From Candidatus Beckwithbacteria bacterium (GTDB lineage Bacteria; Patescibacteriota; Microgenomatia; UBA1400; UBA1449), in assembly GCA_012797845.1 (NCBI GenBank), contig JAAZOH010000016.1, positions 7,733 to 71,732 on the forward strand: a stretch of DNA of 64,000 nucleotides, in the 5' to 3' direction. Position numbers and translations under genes: made by a program. Under the pieces are notes generated by a model that saw only the letters and a list, made by a program, of their open reading frames with translations, was not told the origin of the DNA and made no database searches. This document shows, piece by piece, positions 27,009 to 61,407 of the stretch. Each line of letters opens with the position of its first letter. Position 1 is the stretch's first letter.

Positions 27009-27017
27009 AAAATCTCC

Positions 27018-29448: not shown

Positions 29449-29453
29449 AGGTT

Positions 29454-32801: not shown

Positions 32802-33175
32802 TTACTTTTTTTGATCTTAATAACTTGCCATAGCCAAAATCCTAAATAGAGAAAGCTCAGAAAAGACAGGAGTAAAACCAGACTAATCGAGGCTTTAGTT
32901 AAAAAACCCCATTGCCCTGGCGGTGCATCAATGAGTCTGCGACCAAGCCAAATAGTTGCTAAACCACCAGCAAACACATAGGCTGGAAAACCAAAAATTA
33001 AAATAATTTGCGAAAAATCCTGTTCCCGAAACATAGCTCGCACCGTCTGGAACGGATGTGTAACTAGTCCCAACCAGTTGCGGACAAAAAGATAGCCTTC
33101 TTTAATAGAAAGTAAAATGGAGTATTTAACTATCCTGGTCGAAGTAGCTTGACTGGTAAAGATAAGCTTTAGCAA
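32798..33175 (-). CDS. Small membrane protein, candidate anti-sigma factor
   Basis: Three hydrophobic segments; overlaps the 3' end of the ECF sigma gene. Confidence 0.3.
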   Translation of the reverse strand: MLKLIFTSQATSTRIVKYSILLSIKEGYLFVRNWLGLVTHPFQTVRAMFREQDFSQIILIFGFPAYVFAGGLATIWLGRRLIDAPPGQWGFLTKASISLVLLLSFLSFLYLGFWLWQVIKIKKSK

Positions 33176-34759: not shown

Positions 34760-34768
34760 TGGTATAAT
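34760..34768 (+). promoter_or_regulatory. Extended -10 (TGGTATAAT) candidate promoter for the pilin-like gene array
   Basis: TGnTATAAT consensus 36 nt upstream of the first pilin-like ATG; no good -35. Confidence 0.3.
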
Positions 34769-34803
34769 TGGTATAGTAAAATTGTTTAAAATAACTTTAT
34801 TAT

Positions 34804-35133
34804 ATGTTTCAAGTAAATATCGGTGAAAAGTTTATTTTAGGTGAAGGAGGGGTAGGCATAGGAACCAGCAATAGTGGCTATGACACCCTGGGTATAGTGA
34901 TATCAAATTTAGTTCCTAATATTTTAGTTATTGCTAATATTATTTTGTTTTTCTTTATTTTATTTGGTGGATTTACTATCATTACAAATGCCGGCAATCC
35001 TGACAAGCAAGCTGAAGGAACCAAAACATTAACTTGGGCTTTTGTTGGTTTTTTGATTATTTTTGGAGCTTATTGGATTATGCAAATTCTTAAAATCATT
35101 ACTGGCTTTGATTTACTTAATAGCCAATTGTAA
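34804..35133 (+). CDS. VirB2/TrbC-like pilin family protein, paralogue 1
   Basis: Two hydrophobic helices flanking the conserved loop GGFTIITNAGNPDKQAEGTKTLTWAFVGF. All 7 paralogues share GG(F/I)xW(I/T)TSxGDxxK...A(K/R)xx(I/T)xxAxxGL. Confidence 0.5.
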   Translation: MFQVNIGEKFILGEGGVGIGTSNSGYDTLGIVISNLVPNILVIANIILFFFILFGGFTIITNAGNPDKQAEGTKTLTWAFVGFLIIFGAYWIMQILKIITGFDLLNSQL

Positions 35134-35142
35134 AATATACGT

Positions 35143-35505
35143 ATGTTACTTTCACCATTAATCGGTCAATTTACTCCGCCTCCTCAATTTAAAGGACTTT
35201 TAAACCCGAATGGATACGCAGCTGATCCAAGTGGTTTGATCATGCTTATTAGTAATTTGGTTAAATTTTTTATCATTCTGGGTGGTTTAGCTGCATTTGT
35301 CAATTTTCTATTGGCTGGTTTTCAATATATTACCCAAGGAGACAAACCGGATGAACTTTCCCGAATTCATACTAAAATGTATATGTCGATTATTGGCTTA
35401 GTAGTCATGGTAAGCGCAGTAGTATTAACTGGAATTATCAGCTTTATTTTATATGGCGATCCAAGTTTTATTTTAAACCCACAGGTATATGGACCAAATC
35501 CATAA
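35143..35505 (+). CDS. VirB2/TrbC-like pilin family protein, paralogue 2 (divergent)
   Basis: Same two-helix topology; loop AGFQYITQGDKPDELSRIHTKMYMSIIGL. Confidence 0.45.
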   Translation: MLLSPLIGQFTPPPQFKGLLNPNGYAADPSGLIMLISNLVKFFIILGGLAAFVNFLLAGFQYITQGDKPDELSRIHTKMYMSIIGLVVMVSAVVLTGIISFILYGDPSFILNPQVYGPNP

Positions 35506-35511
35506 AAAGGT

Positions 35512-35961
35512 ATGAAATATCTAAAACAAATTTCAATATTTTTTGTTTTACCAATACTATTATTTTTATTGAGCACAACTGCTTTAGCTCAGTACGCCAC
35601 TCCTTTAAATCCTGGCAAGGGTCTTGATGGTGGCATTGGTCCTTATAATGTCCCCATTGGTTCGGGTGATATAGCTTATCTATCAAAATTGGAGTCAATT
35701 TTTTCCATAGTAGTCAGTTTTATGACTATTTTGACTGGCTTATTTTTTATTATTCATTTTGTAATTGGTGGGTTTACCTGGTCTACAGCTGGTGGAGATA
35801 GTCAAAAAGTAGAAACAGCTAAAACTAAAATGACTAATGCTGCTATTGGGTTGATTATTGTAATTGCCTCTTATTCGATTATTTATATTATTGGCAAAGT
35901 ACTTGGTTTGGATATACTTAATGTTGGCAGTTTGATTTATACATATTTACGTCCTAGTTAA
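35512..35961 (+). CDS. VirB2/TrbC-like pilin family protein, paralogue 3
   Basis: Signal peptide ending ALAQ, then GGFTWSTAGGDSQKVETAKTKMTNAAIGLII. Confidence 0.5.
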   Translation: MKYLKQISIFFVLPILLFLLSTTALAQYATPLNPGKGLDGGIGPYNVPIGSGDIAYLSKLESIFSIVVSFMTILTGLFFIIHFVIGGFTWSTAGGDSQKVETAKTKMTNAAIGLIIVIASYSIIYIIGKVLGLDILNVGSLIYTYLRPS

Positions 35962-35966
35962 TATTT

Positions 35967-36326
35967 ATGGCTTTTTTGCAATTTATCCAGATTCCTGGTC
36001 TTTCAGGTATTAAAAATAGCGTTATCAATTCCAGTGAAGGAACGTATAGCGGAGTTGATAATTCAAGTCCTTTAGCTGCCCTGATTGCTAGATTGTGGTT
36101 AGTAGCTGTTATCCTAGGCTCACTGGCTGTAATATTATTTCTAGTCATGGGAGCCATAGATTGGATTTCGAGCGATGGAGATCCTGAAAAAATTAAAAAG
36201 GCTCGTAATAAAATCGTTGATGCTGTTGTTGGTTTGGGAATATTAGTAGCTTCGTTTGCTATTGTGAAATTTTTAGAATGGATATTTGGATTTGATATAT
36301 TAAATATTTCTTGGCCAACTCCATGA
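35967..36326 (+). CDS. VirB2/TrbC-like pilin family protein, paralogue 4
   Basis: MGAIDWISSDGDPEKIKKARNKIVDAVVGLGIL. Confidence 0.5.
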   Translation: MAFLQFIQIPGLSGIKNSVINSSEGTYSGVDNSSPLAALIARLWLVAVILGSLAVILFLVMGAIDWISSDGDPEKIKKARNKIVDAVVGLGILVASFAIVKFLEWIFGFDILNISWPTP

Positions 36327-36784
36327 AAATTAAAACCCTAATCATTTCATGTATTGCTGCTTTTTTTGCCTTTCTTTTTCAAAGTGAGCTGGTTTTTGCT
36401 CAGGTAAACACCGATATTGGTTCAGCTGTATCCCAACATGGATTTTTTAAAGATAATATCGGTACTTTTATTACACAAATCATTAATACTGGTCTTATTT
36501 TAGGTGCTATTCTTTGTCTGTTTTATCTTATTATTGGAGCTATTGAATGGATTACCTCTGAAGGTGATCAAAATAAAAATGAATCAGCTCGAAAAAGAAT
36601 TACTGCTGCAGTAGTCGGTTTAGGGGTTATGGCTTGTATTTATGCCTTATGGGTCTTAGTATTGTATTTCTTTGGTATTGATAAGATTTCTAATTTTAAT
36701 ATTGGCAGTAATCTAAAACACAATTTTTCAAATGTAAGTTCACTATTGAATCATGATGGGATTAGTTATCCTGGTTCTTGCTAA
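36323..36784 (+). CDS. VirB2/TrbC-like pilin family protein, paralogue 5 (start at the ATG overlapping the upstream stop; ORF track gives TTG at 36311)
   Basis: Signal peptide ending VFAQ, then IGAIEWITSEGDQNKNESARKRITAAVVGLGVM. Confidence 0.5.
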   Translation: MKIKTLIISCIAAFFAFLFQSELVFAQVNTDIGSAVSQHGFFKDNIGTFITQIINTGLILGAILCLFYLIIGAIEWITSEGDQNKNESARKRITAAVVGLGVMACIYALWVLVLYFFGIDKISNFNIGSNLKHNFSNVSSLLNHDGISYPGSC

Positions 36785-36920
36785 TCTCTGATAACTTTTA
36801 GGAGTTAGTGTGAATAAATATCTCTCTTGACTTAGCAAAATCTTAAAGTCATAGTATAATAATAGTAAGATAGAATATAAAAAGTATTATTAATATTTTA
36901 ATAAATAATTTACAATTCTT

Positions 36921-37331
36921 TTGAAAGGCGGTGACAGTATGAAACAAGTTACACAAAAAATCATTCAAGCAGCATTGACAGCTGGTGCTGTTATTTTCAC
37001 TACTGTCAGCCCAATACTGGCTCAGGGGAACATAACCATCGAGGAGCCCACTGGTGGAGTTAAAGATTTTGGAAAACTCTTATCTGCTGGTATTCAAACT
37101 GCTATTATTCTTGCAGCCATTCTAACCTTTGCTTTCTTGATTTGGGGAGGTATTCAATGGATTACATCCGGAGGCGATAAAGCTGCTTATGAAGCTGCAA
37201 GAGGTCGAATTACTGCAGCTTTAGTAGGGCTTGCTATTGTAGCCGCAGCTTGGGCTGTTATGAAACTAGTTGGTTATTTCTTTGGAGTTAACGTTTTTGA
37301 TTTTGAAATTCCAACTGCATCAGGAAGTTAG
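36921..37331 (+). CDS. VirB2/TrbC-like pilin family protein, paralogue 6; candidate major subunit (own RBS GGCGGTGA and own terminator)
   Basis: Signal peptide ending ILAQ, then WGGIQWITSGGDKAAYEAARGRITAALVGLAIV. Preceded by a 137-nt AT-rich spacer and followed by a strong terminator. Confidence 0.55.
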   Translation: MKGGDSMKQVTQKIIQAALTAGAVIFTTVSPILAQGNITIEEPTGGVKDFGKLLSAGIQTAIILAAILTFAFLIWGGIQWITSGGDKAAYEAARGRITAALVGLAIVAAAWAVMKLVGYFFGVNVFDFEIPTASGS

Positions 37332-37353
37332 TTTATTCTAAATGCATAAATTT

Positions 37354-37385
37354 AAAAACCCGGCTTTGCCGGGTTTTTTGTTGCG
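37354..37385 (+). terminator. Rho-independent terminator AAAAACCCGGC-TTTG-GCCGGGTTTTTTG
   Basis: Perfect 6-bp GC stem (CCCGGC/GCCGGG) with T6 tail, immediately after pilin paralogue 6. Confidence 0.75.
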
Positions 37386-37418
37386 TTAATATAACTATCA
37401 TGAGAAAATAGTGAATAT

Positions 37419-37844
37419 ATGAAATTGAGCAAAACTCTACTAGCTTCTCCTTTTTTTATTACTTACTTTTTACTGTTCACTGCTAGTGAGGCTTTTGCTC
37501 AATCTAATTGGTATAGCTCCCAAGATGGTAGTAAACCAGCTACCTTTAAAGATTTAGAAATTGTCTTTAGTAATATTTTAGGTTTATTTATTCCTTTGGC
37601 TGGAGCCGCTGTTTTTATTATGATCATTATTGGTGGATTTACCTATATGACTTCTGGCGGCAATCCCGAAGCAAATGCTAAAGCAGGAACCACTTTAACC
37701 TGGGCAGTAGTCGGACTTTTATTTCTTTTAGGTGGTTGGTTTATCCTCCGTTTTATTAGCAACTTTACTGGTGTTGATGTGACTATCTTTACTATTCCTG
37801 CTCCCGCTTCAACCCCTAATCCTTATAGTCAGATGGGTTTTTAG
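37419..37844 (+). CDS. VirB2/TrbC-like pilin family protein, paralogue 7
   Basis: Signal peptide ending AFAQ, then IGGFTYMTSGGNPEANAKAGTTLTWAVVGLLFL (closest to paralogue 1). Confidence 0.5.
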   Translation: MKLSKTLLASPFFITYFLLFTASEAFAQSNWYSSQDGSKPATFKDLEIVFSNILGLFIPLAGAAVFIMIIIGGFTYMTSGGNPEANAKAGTTLTWAVVGLLFLLGGWFILRFISNFTGVDVTIFTIPAPASTPNPYSQMGF

Positions 37845-37902
37845 TTTTTTATCTTAGATACTTCCCTCTACTCTAAGCTTTCTCTCTTGTTATAATGTAG
37901 AT

Positions 37903-40900
37903 ATGTTACCTTTCCACAAATTACTGGTATTTAACCCATGCCTACACCCTAGTCGGAAACTTCTTGTAATCCTTTTTTTTATTGCAATTTTATTAACTTA
38001 TCTACAAATCATTTATCCTCAATTAGCAAGAGCTATTGATCCAAATGTGGATTTTTTCAACACACATGAATTTACTCAAGTTACTAATGCATCTTTATCA
38101 CTCTATGATCACCCAGGGACAAGCGAAGGTCATCCCCTAGACAGTCAGGCTCCTCAACTTACAGGTCTTCTTGAAGGAAATACTTCCCCATCAGTTACTT
38201 CTGTATACCAAACTACTCCTATTACTGGAGTTGACTATGACAGTTCCTGGGCTAATAATCGTCTTCCAGGGGTTGGAGCTACAGTAGCTGGTTTTAGTAG
38301 TCAAAGCGGACAATCGGTTCAAGTGCCACCATCAGGCTACGATATTGGTGAGGGACGAACTGCTACTATTCTTTATTATGATAATAATAGTGTAACTATT
38401 AATTACGGCAATGTTGGAGAGTTCCAGACAGGATATACTATTCATATTTCTGGAATCCAAGCTAATTCAGAATTATTGGCTTCATATCAACAAGCTGTAG
38501 CTGAGGGGAAATTACTTGCAGTATCTGCTTTTCAAGAGCTAGGAACTGCTCTAAGCTCAGAAGTGCTAGTTGCAATTAGAGACACTGGAGCTCTAATGGA
38601 TCCTCGTTGGCTTGGGGATTGGTGGCAGTACGTTTATGATCCACTTGATCCATTAAATCCAAAACTTCTTGACCCAACAAAGCCTCCTTTACCAAAATTA
38701 GACAATCAATGTACTGTAGGTGATTCTTTACCACCTGATGGCATACTGCGCCCAAATCCTTGTCAAAACTGTACATTATTAGTACCAGATCCTACTAACT
38801 CTTGCGCTACTCAACCAGTTTTACAAAAAACAGGTACCTGGGGCTGTGGTGAACAGGCTTATCGTTGCGAAGGCGAAAATGATGAAGGTGGACTTGATCA
38901 TGATGGTGATTATGTTTTTCTTAAAGATTGGGCAGCAGTGTTTAAAATTAATACTAAAAATACTACGAAGGTTCCTTTTGCTGGTTATCGTAATATCGAA
39001 AAAAAAGATGAAAGATCGACTAATCTTAACAATTATTTACGTGATTATTTTGAAGGCACATTACTTTATGATCGAATTGATGAAAAAAATCCAATCAGTT
39101 TTTCAAATGCTGAGGATATACGAAATTTAAATCTAGAAGCTGGTGTTTTTAGAAAATTAGCTCCTACCTATGTTCAGGACGAACTAAGAAAAGCTATGAT
39201 TAAAAAGAGATATAACTATGAAATTACTAACTGCCAGCAAGGTCCAAATAAAGATACTTGTGCGGATGGAAAAAGCACTAGATATTACAAAACAATGAAT
39301 GAATGGCTGGCTAAAGCAAAACCTTGGCCAGATGGATATTATCCACCAACTTCACCAGATTACCAAGAATGCAATACTATTACTGAGTATTGGGCTGTTT
39401 TTAATTGTGTTAATCAGGCTGATCAAACATACGCTAATGCATATAAAAATTGGTCTGATACTCCTTGGGGTTTACTTTGGTCTTATATTCCTCTTTTTAC
39501 AAGAGAAGACGCTCCAGGCTCAGTTACTTTGACTATTGAACATAAACCAGGGGAACTAGAAACTGCCGGGGTTGGATCAAATAAAGGAAAGTATGCTGCT
39601 GAATTCCCTATGGCTTTCCCTCATTTAGCTGGCTTATATGAAGCTTCTCTTAACTTAAATAAATTACTATTACCAACTATGTTGCAAGATAAGATAGCTA
39701 GTAATAACAGCTCCTCTTCTTTGGTTAGTAAACCTAGCCAAAATATACTTCTAGCTCAGGCCCAAACTTTGGATGACACTATTGGATCAGAGATGTATTT
39801 AGCACAAGCTAGTTCAGATAATACTACTGAACCTGTACCAGAAACCTGGTACCAAACTTCAACTGGTTTGCGACCCAATGAAGATGGTACTACTAGTTGG
39901 TTTTTTGATCTAACTAAAAATAATAATTTTGCTGATGAAGGTAGTTATGATATGGTCCATATGGAGTTTTTTGTTTATGTTAATGGTGAACAAGTAGCAG
40001 CGTATCATGATAGTCCTAGTGTCGAACAAGGGCTTCATTACTCTGAACATATTCCAGATTCTATACAGTTGACACCTGGCGAACAACTCGAAGTTTCTGT
40101 TTTTATTAACAATGGAGCTCAAGCTATCAATGCTATTAAAGAAGATATAGTAGGCAAAACTTTTATTTCAAATTGTACTGTCCAGACTGATGGCAGTATT
40201 GCTTGTGACGGGGTATTGATGAAAATACCAGAACCTCAACAAACCAATTGTCGTAAAAATGGTTCGAGTATAGATAAAAATTGTTCTGGAAATGATCCGA
40301 TTTCTGATTATAATCCAAACGATGAAGTTTGCTGTAATGCTACTGCCAAAGCTACTATAGAAGATTATAAAATTTTTGTGAGTGAAGGTACTTACAAAGG
40401 TGCTTGTGTATGCCCAGCTAGCAACCCGGATTGTGACCTAGATGGAGGAGGTTCAGAATTAATGACTCGACAAGTTGAAGTTAGGCTAAAAATTCCTTAT
40501 TTAGAAAAAATCTATGCTTTAACAACAGGCTCTGAAGCAGGGGTTTTTAATATCTTCCGACCTCAAAATTTTTCAGAATATCCAGACAATGATGCTTTAT
40601 CTGGTATTACCTATGAGCTTGTATCAGGAGATGGAGTTAGTATTGTTCCTGATAGCGGCAATCTTTATTACCCTTATTTAGGTGGAATCCAGGAAACCAA
40701 AAAGTGTCTATCTGAACAGTTTTTGGTTCCTAGAGAACTCCAAAATGGGCAGGAGCAGTGTGGTTTTTGGTCATGGAATCGATATTTAGGAAGTACATCA
40801 GCCTTAGATTTATTGACCAAAGGCTGCACGTCTATGGAAGGCACAATTGATTATCGAAATTCTACTGGTTTTAATAAAGAATCTATAAGAGCTAATGGTT

Positions 40901-41292
40901 TGACTAGAATTAATGCTAATGGCTATTGGAGTTCTGATGAATTTACTAAGAATTTTGATATGGTTTACGATTCTGCGATAGCAGCTGGCTGGAATCCTGC
41001 GTTCGTAGTTGCTCTATGGATCGAGGAATCAGGAGGTTCAGCAGTTACTGCTTGGGATTTAGGATGCAAATATGGCAAAACTAGTACTGGTAGCATGTTA
41101 ATGCCTAAAAATAATATTGCCCTACAGCTTGAATGTTTATTTGAAAAAGACTATGCTACTTTGCCTTGGGAAGAATTTGCACTCACTTATGCCGAAGGTG
41201 CCAGAGAAGGTCGGCAGGATCCGGACAAATTTTGTAATAATCCTAATTTTCCAGGAGGGATTATCAGCGTCTATGAAGCACTAGTTAAATAG
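37903..41292 (+). CDS. Large (1129 aa) Cys-rich secreted/surface protein; C-terminal ~150 aa have a lytic-transglycosylase-like Glu motif (VVALWIEESGGSAVTAWDLG)
   Basis: N-terminal signal/anchor (LLVILFFIAILLTYLQIIYPQLARA), more than 25 Cys in the CxxC/C-x-C spacing typical of extracellular domains. The C-terminal motif is only suggestive. Confidence 0.5.
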   Translation: MLPFHKLLVFNPCLHPSRKLLVILFFIAILLTYLQIIYPQLARAIDPNVDFFNTHEFTQVTNASLSLYDHPGTSEGHPLDSQAPQLTGLLEGNTSPSVTSVYQTTPITGVDYDSSWANNRLPGVGATVAGFSSQSGQSVQVPPSGYDIGEGRTATILYYDNNSVTINYGNVGEFQTGYTIHISGIQANSELLASYQQAVAEGKLLAVSAFQELGTALSSEVLVAIRDTGALMDPRWLGDWWQYVYDPLDPLNPKLLDPTKPPLPKLDNQCTVGDSLPPDGILRPNPCQNCTLLVPDPTNSCATQPVLQKTGTWGCGEQAYRCEGENDEGGLDHDGDYVFLKDWAAVFKINTKNTTKVPFAGYRNIEKKDERSTNLNNYLRDYFEGTLLYDRIDEKNPISFSNAEDIRNLNLEAGVFRKLAPTYVQDELRKAMIKKRYNYEITNCQQGPNKDTCADGKSTRYYKTMNEWLAKAKPWPDGYYPPTSPDYQECNTITEYWAVFNCVNQADQTYANAYKNWSDTPWGLLWSYIPLFTREDAPGSVTLTIEHKPGELETAGVGSNKGKYAAEFPMAFPHLAGLYEASLNLNKLLLPTMLQDKIASNNSSSSLVSKPSQNILLAQAQTLDDTIGSEMYLAQASSDNTTEPVPETWYQTSTGLRPNEDGTTSWFFDLTKNNNFADEGSYDMVHMEFFVYVNGEQVAAYHDSPSVEQGLHYSEHIPDSIQLTPGEQLEVSVFINNGAQAINAIKEDIVGKTFISNCTVQTDGSIACDGVLMKIPEPQQTNCRKNGSSIDKNCSGNDPISDYNPNDEVCCNATAKATIEDYKIFVSEGTYKGACVCPASNPDCDLDGGGSELMTRQVEVRLKIPYLEKIYALTTGSEAGVFNIFRPQNFSEYPDNDALSGITYELVSGDGVSIVPDSGNLYYPYLGGIQETKKCLSEQFLVPRELQNGQEQCGFWSWNRYLGSTSALDLLTKGCTSMEGTIDYRNSTGFNKESIRANGLTRINANGYWSSDEFTKNFDMVYDSAIAAGWNPAFVVALWIEESGGSAVTAWDLGCKYGKTSTGSMLMPKNNIALQLECLFEKDYATLPWEEFALTYAEGAREGRQDPDKFCNNPNFPGGIISVYEALVK

Positions 41293-41352
41293 TAGTTCTG
41301 GTTGTTTGTAAGCATTGGCTGTTGTATCATATATCTAACCTTGTAAGCTTAT

Positions 41353-43254: not shown

Positions 43255-43320
43255 TCTTTCTAGATTTCAAACAAACACATTCTATACTTTATATTTTTAT
43301 ATCCTTGAATTTTAAGTATT

Positions 43321-46275: not shown

Positions 46276-46327
46276 ATATGATTAGTAGTTTTTTATTAGC
46301 TGTATTATACCAAATTTTATAGGATAA

Positions 46328-46356
46328 TTTAAATCTCTTGACACCATAAAGTGTTT
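46328..46356 (+). promoter_or_regulatory. Candidate sigma70-like promoter TTGACA-17-TATTGT
   Basis: Perfect -35 with 17-nt spacer and 4/6 -10, located ~125 nt upstream of the 46480 ORF. Confidence 0.3.
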
Positions 46357-46479
46357 GCGTTATTGTGGTTCTATTCTATCTTATCAAAGGCATTCTGAGA
46401 AGTTAGAATTTTTAAAAATAAAACAGGTGAATGAGGTAAAAATCCTCAGCTGTGCCGCAACCGTGAAAATCCCTTTTGT

Positions 46480-47835: not shown

Positions 47836-47895
47836 TTGTTTTTAAATTAGATTTTAAATGAGATAGCTCTAGCTTTTAATATAAAAATGTTTTTT

Positions 47896-53253: not shown

Positions 53254-53256
53254 ATC

Positions 53257-53667
53257 TTAGTTTGCTGAAGAATTTTGTGACATAGACTGAGGCTCAGATT
53301 TTGTTTCTTGGATATCACTTAAAAAGAAATTGCGAAAATCCATAAAACTCTGGGCAAATACCTCTTTAGCATTGGGGATTTTTTCAGTGATAAACTGTTC
53401 CATTTCCTGTTTACCTTTACCGGATTGAACTAGTTCAATAAATTGATCAACTTGCTCTGGCTGCATGTTTTCGATAGCATCAGCTATGATTTTTTTCTCA
53501 AGTCTGGCATATAAATCTCCAATCATGGCAGCTTTAAGATCATCAGTCAAAACCATACCCGCATCCTCGAGTAATTGATTAAGAAAAGCCTCAATATCTG
53601 ATGGGATTTGTTCTACAGGTGAACTAGCTTGGGTATGACTAGTATTTTGATCGTTAGTATCATTCAT
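53257..53667 (-). CDS. Small acidic protein (136 aa) immediately upstream of and translationally adjacent to the 1785-aa gene; chaperone/adaptor candidate
   Basis: A 3-nt gap to the giant gene and acidic composition. Function is inferred only from size, charge and position. Confidence 0.4.
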   Translation of the reverse strand: MNDTNDQNTSHTQASSPVEQIPSDIEAFLNQLLEDAGMVLTDDLKAAMIGDLYARLEKKIIADAIENMQPEQVDQFIELVQSGKGKQEMEQFITEKIPNAKEVFAQSFMDFRNFFLSDIQETKSEPQSMSQNSSAN

Positions 53668-53715
53668 AAAAAGCCTCCTTTATACTAGAATAGTATAAAG
53701 ATAAAAATAAAGTCA

Positions 53716-54459
53716 ATGACTTCTGTTATCAAAATTATTTCCAGTATATTGCAAAACATTGGTTTGATATCAATGTATTGGTTAGTGTTTTTATGTCTTA
53801 TACAACTATTACTTTTATATCTACTCACAAGATATTATTTAGGAAGTTTATACCGATTTTTTTTATTAATTACTAAGTCATCGAATTGGGCTATGAGGTT
53901 TTCAGCTGTTTTTTTATTACCAGGTACTGTTATCCACGAACTATCTCACTATTTAGTAGCAGAAATTCTTCAAGTTCGTACAGGAAACATTAATTTATAT
54001 CCTGCTAAAAATGAGGAGGGTAAATTACGCCTTGGCAGTGTAGCTATTGCTCAAACCGATCCATTTCGGAAAATTTTAATTGGTACTGCGCCATTATGGA
54101 CAGGCTTGGGTATAATAGCTGCTCTAATATATATCATTGTAGATAAAATACCGCCACTTTTTTTCTTGATTCTGATTTTCACTGCTATTTTTTTAATTGC
54201 TAGTACTATGTTCTCTTCCAAAAAAGATCTGACCGATATGTTTGTCCCTACTTTTTTACTTTTTATTATTTGGCTGTTTTTATACCTGACTAAAACTGCT
54301 TTACCTGAAGCAGTTATCACTTTTTTTTCTCATATACTCATTAGCCTCAACTTAGGCTTATTGGTTACGCTTGCCATTTATCTTATATTTTTATGTTTGC
54401 TTTATATGGCAACTCGTTTATTCAGTCTGATTTTAAAAAGAAAAATTATTACCAAATAA
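53716..54459 (+). CDS. Polytopic membrane protein with HExxH zinc-binding motif (HELSHYLVAE); putative membrane metallopeptidase (DUF3267-like)
   Basis: HExxH embedded after the second TM helix; 5-6 TM helices. Confidence 0.45.
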   Translation: MTSVIKIISSILQNIGLISMYWLVFLCLIQLLLLYLLTRYYLGSLYRFFLLITKSSNWAMRFSAVFLLPGTVIHELSHYLVAEILQVRTGNINLYPAKNEEGKLRLGSVAIAQTDPFRKILIGTAPLWTGLGIIAALIYIIVDKIPPLFFLILIFTAIFLIASTMFSSKKDLTDMFVPTFLLFIIWLFLYLTKTALPEAVITFFSHILISLNLGLLVTLAIYLIFLCLLYMATRLFSLILKRKIITK

Positions 54460-54505
54460 ATCACATGCAAATGACTACCTCTACTTCTCTTGATACAATA
54501 AGTCT

Positions 54506-57241
54506 ATGGTAGACTCTTCTCCACAATTGCAATTACGTGATCAGGCTCAAGCTCGAGCTTTAATTACCCTACTACTCTCTGATCAGAAAGAACCTTTTAC
54601 TATCAATACTCAGCCGTATTCTAGACAGCAATGCTTAGAGGCTTTGCAGGCATATTTAACATCAACCTTAGAAAGACAATGGACTATAGATCAACTTGAT
54701 AATGCCACTGAACTTTCAAAGATTGAAGCCGAATTAGAGGCTTCTTATGAAGAAGAAATTGAAGCTCCAAGTCTGCCTCAAAATTTACAAGAATTGATTC
54801 ATTTTCAAAAAGAAGCAGCTGAACGCAGACAAACTTTGGCAGCCCATAAAGATCTTGACTTAGCTCACATCTCAGTTAAACAAAATGTGGCTTTAGCTCA
54901 AAAATATCGAGAACTACTCGAAAAAGCTAAAGCTTTTAGTCAGGATTCCAGTAATTTAAAAACTGAGGTTGAAACACAAACGATTCAAGAGCGATTGGGC
55001 CGTCAATCAGAAATTGGTAAAGAACTACAAGACAGTTCACTTGCCTATGGTACGCAAATTGCCTTAGAAGAAATCGGTGAACAACTAGTTCGATCAACTG
55101 ATCCAAAGCAAGCCACCATAAATGATCAAGCTGTAAGTTCCAAAATAGCCCTAGATCCTAGAATGGGAACACAAGCAACTAATCCGGTTTTGTATCAAGA
55201 AATACGCAAAACTATTAATCGGCTCAATGAAAACCCTCAACAAAAAAAGCAATTTAGAGATGCCTATATACTTCATAAAGCGGCTCTAGCTGCTACCACC
55301 CCAACCTATACTCAGCTTATCGATGTGTTTGAAGGCGAGGGCCATATGTCAAGAGCTCAAGCTCGACATGCTATGAGTTATTTTACGACTCTAATTGAAA
55401 GTGGTGTGGTCTATAATCAAGCTTTTTTTGAAGCCGGTGAGAGAGCCAGTTCTGGTTTTCAAAGACTAGTTTCGCAAAAATATTACCGTAACCCTAGTTT
55501 ATACAGCCATCTCTTTAGAGGTTTAGAGCAATATCAGCAATACCGCCCAGGCGTACGTAACAATCAAGGTATTATCAATTCTCAAACTGAGCTAACTAGT
55601 CAAGTTGGCAAAGGTGAAAGTACTATCACTTTAGATCAGCTCACAGAAATGATTAATAGGGGATTAGCTCCAGGAGAAGAAGTTTCTCCCACCCAAGTTT
55701 TAGTCCATTTTATGGGTGGCCAAGATGTATTTTATGCAAGTAGTCAAACATTGATTGACAGCCTAGATTCTAATGAAGAACAAAAGAAGCTTCGTTCTTT
55801 CTTATTAGATCAGCAAACTGACTTTACCAATAGTTCTCATAGAATTAGCCAATCAATTACTCATCAAGGTGGTTTTATATCTCAATTTTCTTCCAGTTTC
55901 AAACCGGTCGAACGCCATCAATTTTCGGCTTTTTCACTACTCACTGTTACTGCTTCCAGTATGGCTACAACTGGTTTTGCTTTTGCTACCCACACTGATA
56001 CCAGCAGTTTTAATCTTTTTAGAAATACTAATAATTTTTTAAACAACTCTTTATCTGGTAGATTAGTCAACTATGGCATGGGTAAGGTAGGTGAATGGGC
56101 TCTTGGAGCCGCAGCTTCCACTGGTCTTAAAAAAACTTTTGGTAAGTTAGCAGTTGGTGGCTTAACTAAATTGGCAGGAGCTTTGGGAGTTAATATCATA
56201 CCAGTTGTTGGTCAAGCTGTGTCCGCAGTCATGCTAGCCAAACAAATAGTCGACATTGCCGAACAGCTTCCGGTTGTAGGAAAGGCAGTAGGTTTCGGAA
56301 AGAGATTTTGGTGGGTCTTACCTGCAACTTTACTAGCTGGATTAATTGCTCTTATTGCTAAATTACTCAACTTAATTCTTTCTATTGCTGGGACTGTTGG
56401 ACCTCCAATGCTTATTTTAGGATTAGCAACTGCTAATCCTCTTTTAATAATTCCTGGTCTTGCTTTGACTGTGATTGGTCACTGGCCTACTATTAGTAAG
56501 TTTTTTAGTAATCTTTTTCAGGGTGCTAATAATCTTGGTACTAAGGTTTTAAATCTCTTTGGGGCAGGGGCTTCTGAAGCTGCTAGTGGCGGCATGTTCC
56601 CTGCTTTTGTTCATGCCCCGCTTATAGCTGTGGGGGCAGTTGGTATAACCACAACTTTTTTGTATATCAACCTTATTTCAGCATTTCGATTACCTCCATT
56701 TGATACATTACAAGATGTCTATAATAAAATTGATAATTTAACCCAGTTTGAGCCAGGTATGCCTGAATGTTGGCCAGTTAGCGGGTATGTCACCCAAGGT
56801 ATGAATACTGGAGATAGCCATACTGGAGTGGTGCTTAATTCTATCGATATTGGCGGTAACGATGGAGCAGATGTTCACGCAACTCACAATGGAGTAGTAG
56901 TAGAAGCCGGATGGAATAGTACTGGCTATGGAAAACTGGTTCGGATTGAGGGTACAACTGGAGGACTTCCTTTTACAACCTATTATGCTCATCTTGAAAC
57001 TATCACTGTAAACGAAGGAGCTACAGTTAAAAAAGGCCAAGTTATCGGCACAGTTGATAGTACCGGTAATTCTGAAGGCCCACATTTACATTATGAATTG
57101 CGAGGTTTGGGTTCAATAGCGGATACTATTTTACTGTCCGGATGCATCGATGAAGCAAGTGCTGATAGAATTGAAAACGGAAAGTGTATTGGCCAAGCAA
57201 GCTGTAATTTTACTATTAGTCAAATTGTCCAACCAGAATGA
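54506..57241 (+). CDS. 911-aa protein: N-terminal coiled-coil region, central hydrophobic segments, C-terminal M23 (LytM/lysostaphin-type) peptidase domain
   Basis: M23 signature HTGVVLNSIDIGG (HxxxD) ... YYAHLE ... GPHLHYELR (HxH) in the last ~160 aa. Confidence 0.7.
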   Translation: MVDSSPQLQLRDQAQARALITLLLSDQKEPFTINTQPYSRQQCLEALQAYLTSTLERQWTIDQLDNATELSKIEAELEASYEEEIEAPSLPQNLQELIHFQKEAAERRQTLAAHKDLDLAHISVKQNVALAQKYRELLEKAKAFSQDSSNLKTEVETQTIQERLGRQSEIGKELQDSSLAYGTQIALEEIGEQLVRSTDPKQATINDQAVSSKIALDPRMGTQATNPVLYQEIRKTINRLNENPQQKKQFRDAYILHKAALAATTPTYTQLIDVFEGEGHMSRAQARHAMSYFTTLIESGVVYNQAFFEAGERASSGFQRLVSQKYYRNPSLYSHLFRGLEQYQQYRPGVRNNQGIINSQTELTSQVGKGESTITLDQLTEMINRGLAPGEEVSPTQVLVHFMGGQDVFYASSQTLIDSLDSNEEQKKLRSFLLDQQTDFTNSSHRISQSITHQGGFISQFSSSFKPVERHQFSAFSLLTVTASSMATTGFAFATHTDTSSFNLFRNTNNFLNNSLSGRLVNYGMGKVGEWALGAAASTGLKKTFGKLAVGGLTKLAGALGVNIIPVVGQAVSAVMLAKQIVDIAEQLPVVGKAVGFGKRFWWVLPATLLAGLIALIAKLLNLILSIAGTVGPPMLILGLATANPLLIIPGLALTVIGHWPTISKFFSNLFQGANNLGTKVLNLFGAGASEAASGGMFPAFVHAPLIAVGAVGITTTFLYINLISAFRLPPFDTLQDVYNKIDNLTQFEPGMPECWPVSGYVTQGMNTGDSHTGVVLNSIDIGGNDGADVHATHNGVVVEAGWNSTGYGKLVRIEGTTGGLPFTTYYAHLETITVNEGATVKKGQVIGTVDSTGNSEGPHLHYELRGLGSIADTILLSGCIDEASADRIENGKCIGQASCNFTISQIVQPE
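56758..57238 (+). other. M23 peptidase domain
   Basis: HxxxD and HxH zinc-ligand motifs with the conserved spacing. Confidence 0.65.
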
Positions 57242-58248
57242 AAAAAAAATATATCTTTATACTTATAATAGCTCTTGTAATTATAGTTATTGTTGGGATT
57301 ATATTAGCTTGGCAAAAACAAACTAATCAAATTGCAGTTAATACCCTTCCTAAACCTTCAGTTAAACCTACTACCACTCAACTTAATCTTACATATCAAT
57401 ATGTAGGTGAACTGCCAACATTTAACAAGCAAATTACAATTTACAGTACTGGGAAAGACGAAGCATTTTCATCACAGGAAATTCAGGAATATGGTCAAAA
57501 ATTTGGTTTTACCAACAGTTCAAAGCAGTTACAAGATATTTCTGGTATTGTGTATTCTTTCAAACAAAATGATTTGTCATTGAGCATATTTTCAAACCCA
57601 CCTTCATTATCATACCGTAATTTTACTTCTCCAGGTTCAAACAAGCTTAGTCAAAAAGATTTGGTTGCTAAAGCCCAGGAGTTCTTGGATACCGCTCAAA
57701 TAATAGGTAAACAGGTTATGTTAAGCACTCCCTATTTACAACCAATTGCTGGTAGTCAAACTGGAGAAGGTCTTTTAAAAACAACGATGGATCAAGCTAG
57801 TTATGTAGAAATAAACTATAATTTAGTTCTTGATAAGCTGCCAATTATCCCTAAAGACCGTCAAAGTTATCCAATTACATTGCTACTCAATTTGGATGGA
57901 AGTATTCGCAAGGCTAGTCTAACAATTTTTACTAAAGAACTTTCTTCTCTTGGTAAAGTCACACCTGCAGAACCAGCAGCTGCCCTTCAGGCTATTAATG
58001 CTGGTGGTGGTTTACTAAGTAAATTTAGCAACCCCAACCAAGCTTATACTGAAATTGATAGCAATATGATTTCTACAGCTACTCTTAGGTCGTTGGAATT
58101 GGTTTATTTGTATGATTATGATACAAATACTCTCCAACCCTACTATCGTTTTTCCGGAACTGCAAATACCACAAGTGCTGAATTGATTGAAATTGAAGTG
58201 TTAATTACTGCCTTACCACAGGAGGTCTTTCAACAAGAAAACAATTAG
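57238..58248 (+). CDS. Bitopic membrane protein (336 aa), unknown function; start overlaps upstream stop (ATGA)
   Basis: N-terminal TM (IFILIIALVIIVIVGIILAW) followed by a Ser/Thr/Asn-rich extracytoplasmic domain. Confidence 0.45.
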   Translation: MKKKYIFILIIALVIIVIVGIILAWQKQTNQIAVNTLPKPSVKPTTTQLNLTYQYVGELPTFNKQITIYSTGKDEAFSSQEIQEYGQKFGFTNSSKQLQDISGIVYSFKQNDLSLSIFSNPPSLSYRNFTSPGSNKLSQKDLVAKAQEFLDTAQIIGKQVMLSTPYLQPIAGSQTGEGLLKTTMDQASYVEINYNLVLDKLPIIPKDRQSYPITLLLNLDGSIRKASLTIFTKELSSLGKVTPAEPAAALQAINAGGGLLSKFSNPNQAYTEIDSNMISTATLRSLELVYLYDYDTNTLQPYYRFSGTANTTSAELIEIEVLITALPQEVFQQENN

Positions 58249-58320
58249 TGGAATCGGAAGGACTCGAACCTTCAACCACCAAGGTATAAGCTTGGAGCTC
58301 TACCATTGAGCTACGATTCC
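58249..58320 (-). tRNA. tRNA with anticodon UAU (tRNA-Ile2-like, reads AUA)
   Basis: Cloverleaf folded by hand: acceptor GGAATCG/CGATTCC, D-arm GCTC-AATGGTA-GAGC, anticodon arm CCAAG-CTTATAC-CTTGG, T-arm GAAGG-TTCGAGT-CCTTC. 72 nt, CCA not encoded. Confidence 0.7.
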
Positions 58321-58386
58321 AATTAGCAACAGGGGAATTATACCAAGGAAGTGGCTCTATTGTGAAATAGCACAGAAGTAAAGAGA

Positions 58387-60717
58387 TTATAATCTGGCCC
58401 GCTGGGCAATTTCTGCTCCTACTAAATCCGCATCTTTACCATATTTAAGTCGGGATAACTGAGTAATCATTTCAGCTAGTTGTTTGTTGCGCATTTTATT
58501 GTAGACCTCCATATTTTTAGTTAGATCTAGAGTAAACGGAGGAACAGGCTCATTATTAACAATAGTTTTAATAATTAAATTGTATCGTTCAATATTGATA
58601 AGATCTGTTTCGGTAAAGGTAGGCTGAAATTCATGCTGGAGATAATTGGCATCAGTTACCCCAACTCGGAAAGAAGCAATCGTACCCACATTACCAAAAA
58701 TAGCATTTTTTACCTCATCTTCTATTTGACCAATAAATTGATTAGCTACTACTAGGTTCAGATGGTATTTCCGAGCTTCAGATAAGATCTGGGCAAAGTC
58801 GGGGGTAGCAAAATTTTGAAACTCATCAACATAGAGATAAAAATCTGGCCGTTGTTCTTCAGGTACATCTTGCCTGCTCATCGCTGCGATCAGAATTTTT
58901 GGCACCAAAACCAAGCCTAAAAAATTAGAATTTTCTTCGCCGATCCGGCCTTTAGCTAAGTTGATAAGAAGGATTTTACGCTCATCCATGACCTTGCGAA
59001 AATCAAAAGCTGAATGGCTTTGGCCAATAATATTTCGCATCATTTTATCCGTCACGAAGCGGCCGAATTTAGAGGCAATGTAGTCTAAAACTTCAGATTT
59101 ATGAAAGTCAGAGGTTTGGGCAATCTGGTCAGTCCAGTATCGCCTGACCATTGGATCTTTGACTTTGGGCAGCAGTTCTTGGACATATTTTGGATCGGTT
59201 AAAATACGCACTACTTCTACAAAAGAAGCTCCATCTTCTACCATGACAGTCAACATAGCATTACGGATAGCATGTTCAAATCGAGGCCCAATAATACCTG
59301 TTTTATGCGGGTCATAGAGTTTATACATTAGACCAATAATAGCTGAAGCAATAAAGTGTTGTTGTTGCTCAGTTTTAGCTTCCATAATGTTCATACCCAA
59401 AGGCCGATCTAAATCTGCAGGATTAAAGTAAATCACGTCTTCTGCTCGCTCCGGGGGAATCATTTCCAATAGCTTTTCAACTGTATCATGAGGGTCAATA
59501 AAACAAACTCCACGACCAGCTCTAATATCTTGCAAAATAAGATCAGTCAACATTTCTGATTTCCCAGTCCCAGTTTTTCCAATGATGTACATATGACGTT
59601 GTCTATCTATATCTTGAATATAGACTGGTCTTGAGCTACCCCGAGCTATATTTTTCCCAAGATAAGTGCCTGAACTAGCAATTCCGGCTGGAGCTGGCAT
59701 CCGCTTAGCTGAAAGCCAATAGATGTGTGGAGTTTCTACGCTTTTGTTTGGTAAGTGGAAAAGGGTAGCTAATTCTTCTGAAGATAAAACTGATTTACCA
59801 TCAAAAAGTGGCTGGTAGCGGTAAATAAAATCAATCATAAAAAAGTATTTAAATAAGTGCCATTTGGGAGTTCTTAAAGTATTTAAATCAGAAGCAAACT
59901 GTTTGAATGTCCCTACAATATTTTTTAAATGCATTTTAGCCCTAGGCATATCTGGAGCTGAAACCACAACTCTAATAGTGGTTTCAAAGCCAGGTTTAGA
60001 ACACTTATTTTCAATAGCATCATAAGTCTTTGGATCAATATTGTACTTAGCTTTTTCTGGATCAGATTCATTCTTTTTGGTTCGCGATATATAACCTTTA
60101 CCCATATGACTCCATTTCGGTCCAGTAGGTGCAATAATAATTTGTACAACTGCTCCTTCATCATCTCCCATCTTAGCCAACGCTGAAGTGATAGAAGACA
60201 ATGGGTCTGTTGGTAAGTCTTTATAAACTTTAAGGGGATTGTAATTGCTTGATTTGAGATAAAGATTATCAAAAGCCACTTTACCTTTTTCTGTAAAAAT
60301 ATTATATTCATCTATTTCACGAATATCGGCTCCGGGATATGCTCCATAAAGCTGTTTTTCCACCAAGTCTTGCAAATGACTAGGCACGGCTACATAAAAT
60401 TTAATCTCTTCTTTTTTGGCTACAATTTCAAAAGACAAATGGTCTTGGGCAGACAACCAGGCTTTAAAACCAATTTTAAAAATTGAATGCAATGAAGCAA
60501 ACATTTGTTCAGCTGCGTCAATTTTGGTTTCATTTTCCCGAGGTACACGTATCTGTAATAAAACCATGTCCAATGATACTTCTTCTCTTTTTCTGAATTT
60601 TAAAAGTAGAATCAGCACATACCCTACTCCAGCTATGCCTCCAATTGCTAGTAAACCAATAATAAGTACTACTGCAAAATACTGAATTTGAGATAAGAAA
60701 GTTGCAAGATCTGCCAT
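58387..60717 (-). CDS. Membrane-anchored VirB4/TraC-like (FtsK/HerA-superfamily) secretion ATPase
   Basis: N-terminal TM hairpin (FAVVLIIGLLAIGGIAGVGYVLILLL), Walker A YIIGKTGTGKSE near residue ~385, Walker B LYVDEFQNFAT. Size (776 aa) and motif placement are VirB4-like. Confidence 0.55.
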   Translation of the reverse strand: MADLATFLSQIQYFAVVLIIGLLAIGGIAGVGYVLILLLKFRKREEVSLDMVLLQIRVPRENETKIDAAEQMFASLHSIFKIGFKAWLSAQDHLSFEIVAKKEEIKFYVAVPSHLQDLVEKQLYGAYPGADIREIDEYNIFTEKGKVAFDNLYLKSSNYNPLKVYKDLPTDPLSSITSALAKMGDDEGAVVQIIIAPTGPKWSHMGKGYISRTKKNESDPEKAKYNIDPKTYDAIENKCSKPGFETTIRVVVSAPDMPRAKMHLKNIVGTFKQFASDLNTLRTPKWHLFKYFFMIDFIYRYQPLFDGKSVLSSEELATLFHLPNKSVETPHIYWLSAKRMPAPAGIASSGTYLGKNIARGSSRPVYIQDIDRQRHMYIIGKTGTGKSEMLTDLILQDIRAGRGVCFIDPHDTVEKLLEMIPPERAEDVIYFNPADLDRPLGMNIMEAKTEQQQHFIASAIIGLMYKLYDPHKTGIIGPRFEHAIRNAMLTVMVEDGASFVEVVRILTDPKYVQELLPKVKDPMVRRYWTDQIAQTSDFHKSEVLDYIASKFGRFVTDKMMRNIIGQSHSAFDFRKVMDERKILLINLAKGRIGEENSNFLGLVLVPKILIAAMSRQDVPEEQRPDFYLYVDEFQNFATPDFAQILSEARKYHLNLVVANQFIGQIEDEVKNAIFGNVGTIASFRVGVTDANYLQHEFQPTFTETDLINIERYNLIIKTIVNNEPVPPFTLDLTKNMEVYNKMRNKQLAEMITQLSRLKYGKDADLVGAEIAQRARL

Positions 60718-60754
60718 AACAAACTAATACCCAAGTTTTAGAATCATCATATTA

Positions 60755-60773
60755 GGTACTATTTTATAGTACC
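60755..60773. promoter_or_regulatory. Perfect palindrome GGTACTAT-TTT-ATAGTACC 38 nt upstream of the VirB4-like gene start; operator candidate
   Basis: 8-bp inverted repeat with 3-nt spacer, read directly from the sequence. Confidence 0.3.
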
Positions 60774-60801
60774 ATTCTTGGTAAGAAAGAAGAATTGCTA
60801 T

Positions 60802-61407
60802 TTATTCCTGCTTAAAAAATACTCGTCCCGGATAGAGCAAAATATTACGATGACACCACTCTGCCAACCACCGCACTGAATCAGCTACTTTATGATGAAA
60901 AGCTTTTTCTATTTCTTCTTCTGATACTGGTAAAGTAATATTGGGTTTAGAAATTTGAGTAGCTTGAACCAGCAAGTCTCCATATTCATCTTCCACCGGC
61001 TTTGGTAAAGTAATGGTTTGAGGATTGGGAGTAGGTTTGACAAATTCGGCTATTTCCCCACTCGGTTCAAAATCAGCTTGAACTTCCCGGATTGGAACCC
61101 GCTCTGGGCTAGGGGTGCCAACCTGTTCATCTTGACGTTCTTTGTCCCGGGTTTGTGTAATTTGATTGGTTGTATCATCTGAAGCATCATCAGAAAACTG
61201 GCTAGTTTGTTGGCCAAGTAATGATTGTAAGCTTGGTCGCACTTGAGTAGTGCTTTGCTTTTGTTGTGCTTGTTGTTGTATTGTATGAAGTTTGTCTTCT
61301 TCGCTTTGCTTAGTCTGGGCTTCTAGTGTGGCAATCTCATCCTGAAGTTGATGAGTAATTTGAACCACTTGTTGATCATCTGGAATTTGAGCAGTTGGAT
61401 CATCCAT
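60802..61407 (-). CDS. Gln/Thr-rich low-complexity protein (201 aa), unknown function
   Basis: ORF upstream of and co-oriented with the VirB4-like gene. The N-terminal half is Q-rich; the C-terminal 60 aa are globular. Confidence 0.35.
   Translation of the reverse strand: MDDPTAQIPDDQQVVQITHQLQDEIATLEAQTKQSEEDKLHTIQQQAQQKQSTTQVRPSLQSLLGQQTSQFSDDASDDTTNQITQTRDKERQDEQVGTPSPERVPIREVQADFEPSGEIAEFVKPTPNPQTITLPKPVEDEYGDLLVQATQISKPNITLPVSEEEIEKAFHHKVADSVRWLAEWCHRNILLYPGRVFFKQE

Follow-up and report, generated by a model that had tools for sequence, protein, structure and literature searches.

What kind of machine is encoded in a chromosomal locus of Candidatus Beckwithbacteria (Microgenomatia, Patescibacteria) where seven small pilin-like genes are followed by genes for membrane proteins, a cell-wall hydrolase and several giant proteins, with the gene of a membrane-anchored ATPase next to them? 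The locus lies in a 64 kb stretch of DNA that was analysed as a whole (the window), with proteins filed at NCBI (e.g. NMC35875.1 and NMC35883.1), and all open reading frames (ORFs) listed in a first-pass annotation made from the sequence alone were recovered at the same coordinates (Table 1). In this bacterium the block should make up the envelope half of the chromosomal type IV secretion system (T4SS) of the Patescibacteria type, a reading to which we assign a probability of about 0.78; such systems descend from the machinery that monoderm bacteria use for conjugation. The reading is carried by the pilin array, a VirB6 homologue, the chromosomal location without a relaxase, and the patescibacterial source together with synteny in relatives, while VirB4, PrgI/VirB3 and the TrsD-like protein of such a system are not encoded in the window.

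Pilin array and VirB6 homologue

The seven small ORFs at 34804–37844 on the + strand (P1–P7) all score above the gathering score of the Pfam family PF18895 (T4SS_pilin), with 30.2–35.5 bits against a threshold of 26.6, and the seven VirB2/TrbC-like pilins of the first-pass annotation are thus confirmed. The layout is VirB2-like with two hydrophobic helices and, between them, a short loop that bears an SGGDP-K-like motif, and P6 fits it only if a third, N-terminal hydrophobic segment is taken as a signal peptide; a signal peptide ending in AxA-Q is found in four or five of the seven. The paralogues are only 20–28% identical to the first pilin, and a profile built from all seven found no eighth copy elsewhere in the window. 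By best-hit analysis P1–P7 correspond one to one, and in unchanged order, to the pilins of a Beckwithbacteria relative (L005), and nearly so to those of Chisholmbacteria (L006). The pattern P1-P2-P3-(P4)-(P5)-P6-P7 is seen in several more Microgenomatia loci, complete in L015, L035 and L058 and kept from P2 onward in L021 and L082. The P1 orthologue occupies the first place in L005, L006, L015, L035 and L058, P7 is last in the arrays of the relatives, and the four-gene arrays of other lineages resemble derivatives of P7 and P6. The one-to-one counterparts and the conserved order indicate that the array is an old, fixed set of paralogues and not a recent amplification. Such a set would fit distinct structural roles better than antigenic variation (an idea of PMC12102498), which is not to say that it proves them.

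The 633-aa (amino acid) protein has no Pfam match in the window sequence itself, and TrbL/VirB6 is the sole recurring family among 35 homologues, detected in four of them with a best E-value of 2e-5. The AlphaFold model has a mean pLDDT of 69.6 and exceeds 85 over most of the membrane core, and each of the top seven Foldseek matches is a TrwI/VirB6 chain, although the TM-scores are modest. The solved structures that it matches best are those of DotA and TrwI/VirB6. A profile of the family matched nothing in the PDB, and tblastn searches of plasmids with the window protein and with the TrbL-positive homologue P0148 gave no match either. The protein is therefore recognised by its fold, and with moderate confidence, as a VirB6 homologue, which gives support at the level of structure to the VirB6/TrbL-like protein with a Cys-rich ectodomain proposed earlier. 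The VirB6 of Microgenomatia is so divergent that surveys with hidden Markov models (HMMs) called VirB6 scarce in this group (PMC12102498).

Chromosomal position and conserved gene order

The block between 34.8 and 58.2 kb is chromosomal and is flanked on both sides by housekeeping genes. To the left are the core genes for FtsK, RNase J, a Lon-like AAA protein, PNPase, IF-2 and NusA, and to the right those for a corrinoid adenosyltransferase, Maf and a PMT_2 glycosyltransferase, followed past the end of the window by ribonucleotide reductase genes. The composition of the window is uniform at about 38% GC (37.9%). Neither the 64 kb nor the roughly 10 kb beyond their right end contain a gene with a Pfam match to a relaxase, an integrase or a replication protein. 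The lack of these genes had been reported from the sequence alone, and so had the conclusion drawn from it, namely that the locus is not a conjugative plasmid or an integrative and conjugative element but a T4SS-related envelope apparatus in the chromosome; both hold.

That the genes are instead the remnant of an ordinary conjugative element, with relaxase and transfer genes just outside, is highly improbable. T4SS-type genes are present together with a coupling-protein homologue, and a tRNA gene abuts the block, as might be seen in such an element, but the missing mobility and replication genes, the uniform composition and the core-gene flanks, which also include a mevalonate pathway, all speak against it. 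In addition, families of Microgenomatia share the block in syntenic form and by vertical descent, usually beside dnaA, and no repeats were found around an inserted gene cassette (described below), which was the sole junction examined.

Synteny is seen in L005, L006 and many of the loci L011–L090. The order in L005 is an ECF (extracytoplasmic function) sigma factor, seven pilins, a large secreted protein, VirB6, a convergent large protein, a protein like the 451-aa protein of the window and an HExxH protein; the contig ends inside the next gene, and no M23 match was hence obtained there. The Chisholmbacteria loci (L006/L011) have the same order from the sigma factor to the convergent protein, plus an M23 hydrolase and a small anchored protein. 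A polyprenyl synthetase beside the ECF sigma factor is not found in every one of these compared loci (L005, L006/L011). Conservation in relatives, suggested as a check of the first-pass annotation, thus extends over pilins, secreted protein, VirB6 and convergent giant, and not over the cassette of the 1785-aa giant and its DUF5663 partner.

The VirB4 module and a probable split locus

Searches of the window with tblastn and phmmer using Microgenomatia VirB4 gave no VirB4-like ORF, and no match to a PrgI/VirB3- or TrsD-like protein was obtained there. The loci of relatives were recovered by a genome scan with a PrgI fragment from Chisholmbacteria, and features were counted within 10 kb of PrgI in 80 species-representative Microgenomatia loci. 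A TrsD-like gene is present in 79 and VirB4 in 77 of them, counts that are partly by construction for PrgI-linked genes because PrgI was the query, and dnaN and dnaA are present in 60 and 58, respectively. In 59 of the 80, with the Beckwithbacteria locus L025 among them, VirB4, PrgI and a TrsD-like gene lie together beside dnaN-dnaA. A VirB6-like gene was found in 49 of the 80, pilins in 37, the coupling-type ATPase with a DUF8128 domain in 34 and an M23 protein in 27. The genuine VirB4 of Microgenomatia has 631–650 aa and matches P-loop_TraG (1e-29), AAA_10 and, weakly, CagE_TrbE_VirB; its profile matches the Thermoanaerobacter VirB4 structure 4ag5 (4e-65) and TrwK (2e-7), and the Beckwithbacteria and Chisholmbacteria proteins are 70% identical.

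In Chisholmbacteria the block runs directly into genes for PrgI, the TrsD-like protein and VirB4, followed by dnaN and dnaA on the other strand. The usual order in Gottesmanbacteria is pilins, VirB6, then on the opposite strand a giant, NadE, NadD and the coupling-protein homologue, followed by PrgI, TrsD, VirB4, hydrolase, a small protein and, again on the opposite strand, dnaN and dnaA. In several lineages PrgI-TrsD-VirB4 lies beside dnaN-dnaA with pilins and VirB6 not nearby, and this is also the case in a Beckwithbacteria locus (L025), where neither is found within 10 kb. Given these relatives, the window is best read as the other half of a split locus, and not as the self-contained system first proposed. 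By analogy, the PrgI(VirB3)-TrsD-like-VirB4 module should lie beside dnaN-dnaA elsewhere in the genome. L025 was considered as a part of the genome of the window itself, which the GC and tetranucleotide comparison suggests it is not.

Double-length VirB4 ORFs of about 1,190–1,230 aa, compared with the usual 630–660, are found in L016 (5325–8909), L021 (11851–15549) and L035 (12266–15964), which suggests that the ORF has been fused to another or has taken up an insertion, possibly an intein. Many MAG (metagenome-assembled genome) records titled "uncultured Gammaproteobacteria bacterium" (L015, L016, L018, L021, L022 and others of L011–L090) carry loci of the Microgenomatia type, and since PrgI-TrsD-VirB4 next to dnaN-dnaA together with pilin arrays is typical of Microgenomatia, these labels look wrong.

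The coupling-type ATPase

The 776-aa protein encoded beside the block had been described as a membrane-anchored VirB4-like ATPase, and a VirD4-type coupling ATPase had been reported as lacking. The anchor is present, but the protein scores above the Pfam cut-offs for two families of coupling proteins, TrwB_AAD_bind and TraG-D_C, and has no Pfam match to CagE_TrbE_VirB or P-loop_TraG; with TIGR00929 it reaches 19.9 bits against a cut-off of 643. None of its NCBIfam matches comes near the cut-off; the best of them are to coupling proteins of the TraD type, and those to CedB and CedD (E 3e-5 and 7e-5) cover little beyond the P-loop. Public annotation adds an N-terminal DUF8128, a domain of about 300 aa that separates the anchor from the ATPase domain. 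With a profile of 29 homologues, DotL and TrwB were matched among solved structures and no VirB4, and in hhalign comparisons with the genuine Microgenomatia VirB4 only the Walker A/P-loop region is shared. Full-length homologues (85–92% coverage) were found on archaeal and Gram-positive plasmids. On plasmids of Bacillus and Embleya the homologue adjoins a gene of the "replication-relaxation family", and the same clusters encode a separate VirB4-like ATP-binding protein, on the Embleya plasmid also with a PrgI gene. This gene context, with the genuine VirB4 being another protein, is decisive, and the 776-aa ATPase is, as judged from its sequence, a VirD4/TraG-type coupling-protein homologue and not VirB4. 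The picture of a minimal ATPase set without a coupling protein is thereby reversed, as it is VirB4 that is missing from the window.

The coupling-type ATPase is 68–80% identical across many MAGs, a housekeeping-like conservation, and the L005 contig (35,813 bp) also bears a homologue (P0016, 76% identity). Where the gene order around PrgI was examined, it is located between VirB6 and PrgI. With the ATPase adjoining the block in the window, on the same contig in the nearest relative and inside the T4SS locus of others, one could imagine a self-contained minimal secretion or filament system that has this ATPase as its only motor and needs no VirB4. This is improbable, since the contiguous loci always have the genuine VirB4, PrgI and TrsD-like genes too (77–79 of 80, a share that is partly due to the choice of PrgI as query), VirB4 is the only universal T4SS ATPase and is tied to pilus biogenesis (PMC12102498), and in three relatives (L002–L004) the ATPase gene stands alone among housekeeping genes, after Maf, CobA and a small conserved ORF.

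Some of the observations weigh against assigning the window to the Patescibacteria-type T4SS. As VirB4, VirB3 and the TrsD-like protein are absent, the assignment to a full system rests on relatives, and L025, at 32.6% GC compared with 37.9% in the window, is probably another species. In the closely related ATPase loci L002–L004 there is no T4SS gene near the coupling-type ATPase, which makes its functional tie to the machine uncertain, and a report that the t4cp homologue of Southlakia is non-essential (PMC12102498) adds to this doubt.

An ATPase unrelated to the T4SS was considered because of L002–L004, and this idea was softened when PrgI was found within 10 kb in the 34 loci. A dedicated operon of the coupling-type ATPase and a giant protein was also considered and was rejected, as genes resembling those for nicotinate-nucleotide adenylyltransferase (NadD) and NAD synthetase (NadE), names given from sequence only, intervene in Gottesmanbacteria. 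The 201-aa acidic protein encoded upstream of the ATPase is conserved in its C-terminal region with the small ORFs that precede the ATPase in L002 and L004 (E 2e-13 to 4e-25). In these two loci a XerC/D-like tyrosine recombinase gene (12431–13291 in L002, 12488–13354 in L004) follows about 100 bp after the ATPase, and is itself followed by DivIC. The window has the tRNA-Ile gene and the T4SS block where L002 and L004 have XerC/D-DivIC, which hints at a rearrangement breakpoint.

Hydrolase and small envelope proteins

The M23 hydrolase recognised in the first-pass annotation as part of a 911-aa membrane protein is well supported, with Peptidase_M23 at residues 778–869 (E 3.4e-26) and the four transmembrane (TM) segments at 557–715. 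This protein takes the VirB1 part, that of the cell-wall hydrolase. The M23 protein is encoded after VirB4 in most of the displayed loci and before PrgI in Chisholmbacteria (L011), and in other lineages a CHAP or C39-like domain replaces M23. The 336-aa protein has a weak C-terminal likeness to a 354-aa protein encoded after M23 in Chisholmbacteria, and was found in 12 of the 80 loci. The motif of a membrane HExxH peptidase, also noted before, is present as HELSH in the 247-aa protein, which has orthologues in L005, with 35% identity, and beside the pilins of L059. The 451-aa protein has an orthologue with 25% identity at the same position in L005. No significant Pfam or NCBIfam match was found for the 247-, 336- and 451-aa proteins, nor for the 201-aa protein or the giants of 984, 1129 and 1785 aa.

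Giant proteins, conserved slot and inserted cassette

The giants of 1129, 984 and 1785 aa are all present as annotated, and they are not one class; searches of PDB sequences gave nothing for any of them. The 1129-aa protein has one N-terminal hydrophobic segment, and L005 (32% identity over 966 aa), L006 and L015 each have a syntenic orthologue, encoded after the pilins and before VirB6. Its last 115 residues (1014–1128, at about 40942–41286) form a domain that recurs in proteins of 416–447 aa encoded directly after VirB4, one of which is fused to CHAP. This combination mirrors the SLT-plus-CHAP design of Gram-positive VirB1-type hydrolases, and the domain is a candidate wall-cutting domain of the lysozyme/SLT type.

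Among 1.84 billion representative proteins, only three are related to the 984-aa protein, and one of the three is likewise encoded convergent to a VirB6-like gene. The slot itself is highly conserved: VirB6 is followed by a convergent ORF, 554–1423 aa long, in 48 of 49 loci. The slot proteins contain 27–35% D/E/K/R, are poor in Cys and have no signal peptides, and about 31 of 54 have a hydrophobic segment near the C-terminus, mostly 24–43 residues from the end. They form 20 BLAST clusters that are barely joined by profile iteration, and HMM iteration intended to unite them reached only two further sequences. It is possible, but doubtful, that the T4SS of Microgenomatia has two core features not recognised before, namely a fixed set of about seven non-interchangeable pilins and a fast-evolving, charged and often tail-anchored giant convergent to VirB6. 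If true, the pilins would imply a heteromeric filament or stalk and not antigenic variation. In the boldest form of this idea, the slot giants and the DUF5663-linked giant with its GT-A-like domain may be substrates that are delivered into host bacteria after recognition by the DUF8128 ATPase.

The 1785-aa giant had been counted as a part of the system, and has to be removed from it. Only six partial homologues were found among 8,000 word-sharing candidates scored from a database of 5.8 billion proteins, and the 136-aa protein encoded next to it matches DUF5663 (E 8.9e-7). A pair of DUF5663 and giant genes lies among housekeeping genes in L007 (8268–13565), and the cassette is missing between the 454-aa and 243-aa genes of L005, so the pair is an inserted cassette and not core. 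The glycosyltransferase-like end claimed for the giant is weakly suggested: D1519-x-D1521 is invariant in seven homologues, and sub-threshold matches to the GT2 family (E 0.02–0.05) occur in two or three of these seven and not in the window protein itself, so that a GT-A-like glycosyltransferase domain may be present at the C-terminus. One of the homologues carries an APH kinase domain. DUF5663 together with an orphan giant of 1349–1785 aa recurs as a two-gene cassette in Patescibacteria. In the giant a hydrophobic stretch rich in glycine is conserved, and the C-terminal domain contains DxD.

Proposed function

From established T4SS biology and the genetics of Southlakia (PMC10633639), VirB4 would together with VirB3 pull the pilins out of the membrane, and the pilins would be built on the VirB6 platform into a pilus or conduit, for which the M23 hydrolase and the probable lysozyme-type domain would open the wall. 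As no relaxase is present and the homologous Southlakia system is essential for epibiotic growth, the apparatus should serve contact and exchange with a host cell and not plasmid transfer. The cargo might be protein that is exported, possibly recruited by the coupling-type ATPase, or host macromolecules that are imported.

A machine that only imports, taking up host DNA or macromolecules like the archaeal Ced or the Helicobacter ComB system, is unlikely. Patescibacteria do not have nucleotide, amino-acid and lipid synthesis, their T4SS is essential for epibiotic growth (PMC10633639), and uptake through T4SS and pilus has been speculated upon in a review (PMC12857230); the lack of a relaxase and the faint CedB and CedD matches of the ATPase would agree with this. 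Those matches are far under cut-off, however, and the closest full-length relatives of the ATPase lie in conjugation clusters beside relaxase-type genes, and direction of transport is not readable from sequence.

Neighbouring genes

The ECF sigma factor gene is found upstream of the pilin array in three genomes, the window, L005 (1163–1738) and L006 (3451–4005), and it may regulate the pilin operon. The mevalonate pathway is complete in this bacterium, with a cluster at 25002–32801 on the - strand encoding thiolase, an HMG-CoA synthase-like protein, HMG-CoA reductase, two GHMP kinases, diphosphomevalonate decarboxylase and a double-NUDIX protein (IDI-like), and is followed by a polyprenyl synthetase gene at 33694–34740. 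At the other end of the block, the tRNA-Ile gene directly borders the 336-aa ORF at its stop codon. The anticodon of this tRNA is UAU; most bacteria have a CAU tRNA that is modified with lysidine in its place.

Farther to the left, four ORFs of 490, 676, 170 and 342 aa (8722–12224 and 18516–20059, - strand) have no Pfam matches at all and are surrounded by well-annotated housekeeping genes. A protein of the streptomycin adenylyltransferase family (PF04439, E 3e-65) is encoded at 14424–15362 (- strand) of this patescibacterial chromosome. In a relative (L002/L003, 433–3357) the ribonucleotide reductase gene is split by an intein with a LAGLIDADG endonuclease, and the genome of the window has three separate ribonucleotide reductase-like ORFs to the right of the window (L001).

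Table 1. Position of the predicted genes in and around the T4SS block, in window coordinates.
Feature	Position	Strand	Remarks
Membrane ORF, 125 aa	32798–33175	-	Follows the ECF sigma factor gene; anti-sigma factor candidate
ECF-type sigma factor	33126–33692	-	Matches to Sigma70_r2, Sigma70_r4_2 and Sigma70_ECF; neighbours the pilin array
Pilin paralogue P1, VirB2/TrbC-like, 109 aa	34804–35133	+	PF18895, 35 bits
Pilin paralogue P2, 120 aa	35143–35505	+	PF18895, 35.4 bits; positional orthologues in relatives
Pilin paralogue P3, 149 aa	35512–35961	+	PF18895, 34.6 bits; signal peptide
Pilin paralogue P4, 119 aa	35967–36326	+	PF18895, 32.6 bits
Pilin paralogue P5, 157 aa	36311–36784	+	PF18895, 33.5 bits; TTG start; signal peptide
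Pilin paralogue P6, 136 aa	36921–37331	+	PF18895, 30.2 bits; signal peptide
Pilin paralogue P7, 141 aa	37419–37844	+	PF18895, 35.5 bits; TrbC, E 6.5e-4; signal peptide
1129-aa protein	37903–41292	+	N-terminal anchor or signal; 26 Cys; presumably extracytoplasmic
VirB6/TrbL-like polytopic membrane protein, 633 aa	41353–43254	+	Cys-rich N-terminal ectodomain
984-aa protein	43321–46275	-	Highly charged, cytoplasmic type; slot convergent to VirB6; no signal peptide or TM segment
451-aa protein	46480–47835	+	C-terminal CxxC...CxxC cluster, zinc-ribbon-like; no family match
Cassette	47896–53667	-	1785-aa giant (47896–53253) and DUF5663 protein of 136 aa (53257–53667)
247-aa polytopic membrane protein	53716–54459	+	HELSH (HExxH) motif; about five hydrophobic segments; no family match
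911-aa protein	54506–57241	+	Cytoplasmic N-domain of about 550 aa, four TM segments, C-terminal M23 peptidoglycan peptidase
336-aa protein	57238–58248	+	N-terminal TM anchor, extracytoplasmic body; follows the hydrolase gene
tRNA-Ile, anticodon TAT (UAU)	58248–58320	-	ARAGORN; Rfam tRNA, 74.6 bits
776-aa membrane-anchored ATPase	58387–60717	-	VirD4/TraG-type coupling-protein homologue by sequence; DUF8128 N-domain
201-aa acidic protein	60802–61407	-	Conserved small partner; upstream of the ATPase

Comparison with known systems

The T4SS of Southlakia epibionticum (SEML1_0006-0019) has a pilin array, is essential and has no recognisable relaxase (Wang et al. 2023, PMC10633639). Before the Patescibacteria T4SS, no T4SS had been shown to be indispensable to the cell that carries it. 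In the survey of Quinonero-Coronel et al. (2025, PMC12102498) the Patescibacteria VirB4 forms a clade within the mating-pair formation class MPF-FATA, the systems have arrays of 2–11 VirB2 genes, especially in Microgenomatia, and no relaxase, and virB4 is located near dnaA. Relaxase-less chromosomal T4SSs, pilin arrays, VirB4 near dnaA, M23-containing hydrolases and coupling-protein homologues mostly located away from virB4 are thus already published, and the window is a rediscovery of the known Patescibacteria T4SS in a new genome and no new kind of system. The first-pass remark that this is not a textbook T4SS is right as to the combination of genes, which has nevertheless been described (PMC10633639, PMC12102498, PMC12857230). 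The additions made here are modest, namely a VirB6 recognised by fold, pilins conserved in their order, a DUF8128 ATPase that is often embedded in the locus and a conserved slot for giants.

Like the Patescibacteria T4SSs of Southlakia and of the survey, the system is chromosomal, belongs to a monoderm, has no relaxase and has a divergent pilin array, here of seven, as well as a VirB6 homologue and M23 and probable lysozyme-type wall hydrolases, and in relatives VirB4-PrgI-TrsD lies near dnaA-dnaN. It differs in that the locus of the window is split, with a coupling-type ATPase but no VirB4, VirB3 or TrsD, and in the extra cassette of DUF5663 and giant. The polytopic VirB6-like protein, the VirD4-type coupling protein and the anchored hydrolase are shared with the MPF-FATA systems (pCF10 Prg, pIP501 Tra and pGO1 Trs), in which the hydrolase in the VirB1 role is also membrane-anchored and has two activities, and so are PrgI/VirB3, TrsD and VirB4, which are found in the relatives of the window. 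In contrast, VirB2 pilins are lacking in the MPF-FATA conjugative systems, which have a relaxase and oriT and are located on mobile elements, whereas the window combines seven pilins with a fixed place in the chromosome and has no relaxase. The 776-aa ATPase resembles VirD4, TraG, TrwB and DotL in its N-terminal anchor and coupling domains, and its homologues on plasmids of Bacillus and Streptomycetaceae are encoded next to relaxase-type genes and a separate VirB4; it differs from them by DUF8128, by having no relaxase partner in the window and by its housekeeping-like conservation. With the archaeal Ced system the locus has in common small VirB2-like pilins, a polytopic membrane protein, an ATPase of the HerA/VirB4 superfamily and the lack of a relaxase, but the similarity to CedB and CedD is marginal, and the gene set and the phylogenetic affinity are those of the bacterial MPF-FATA systems.

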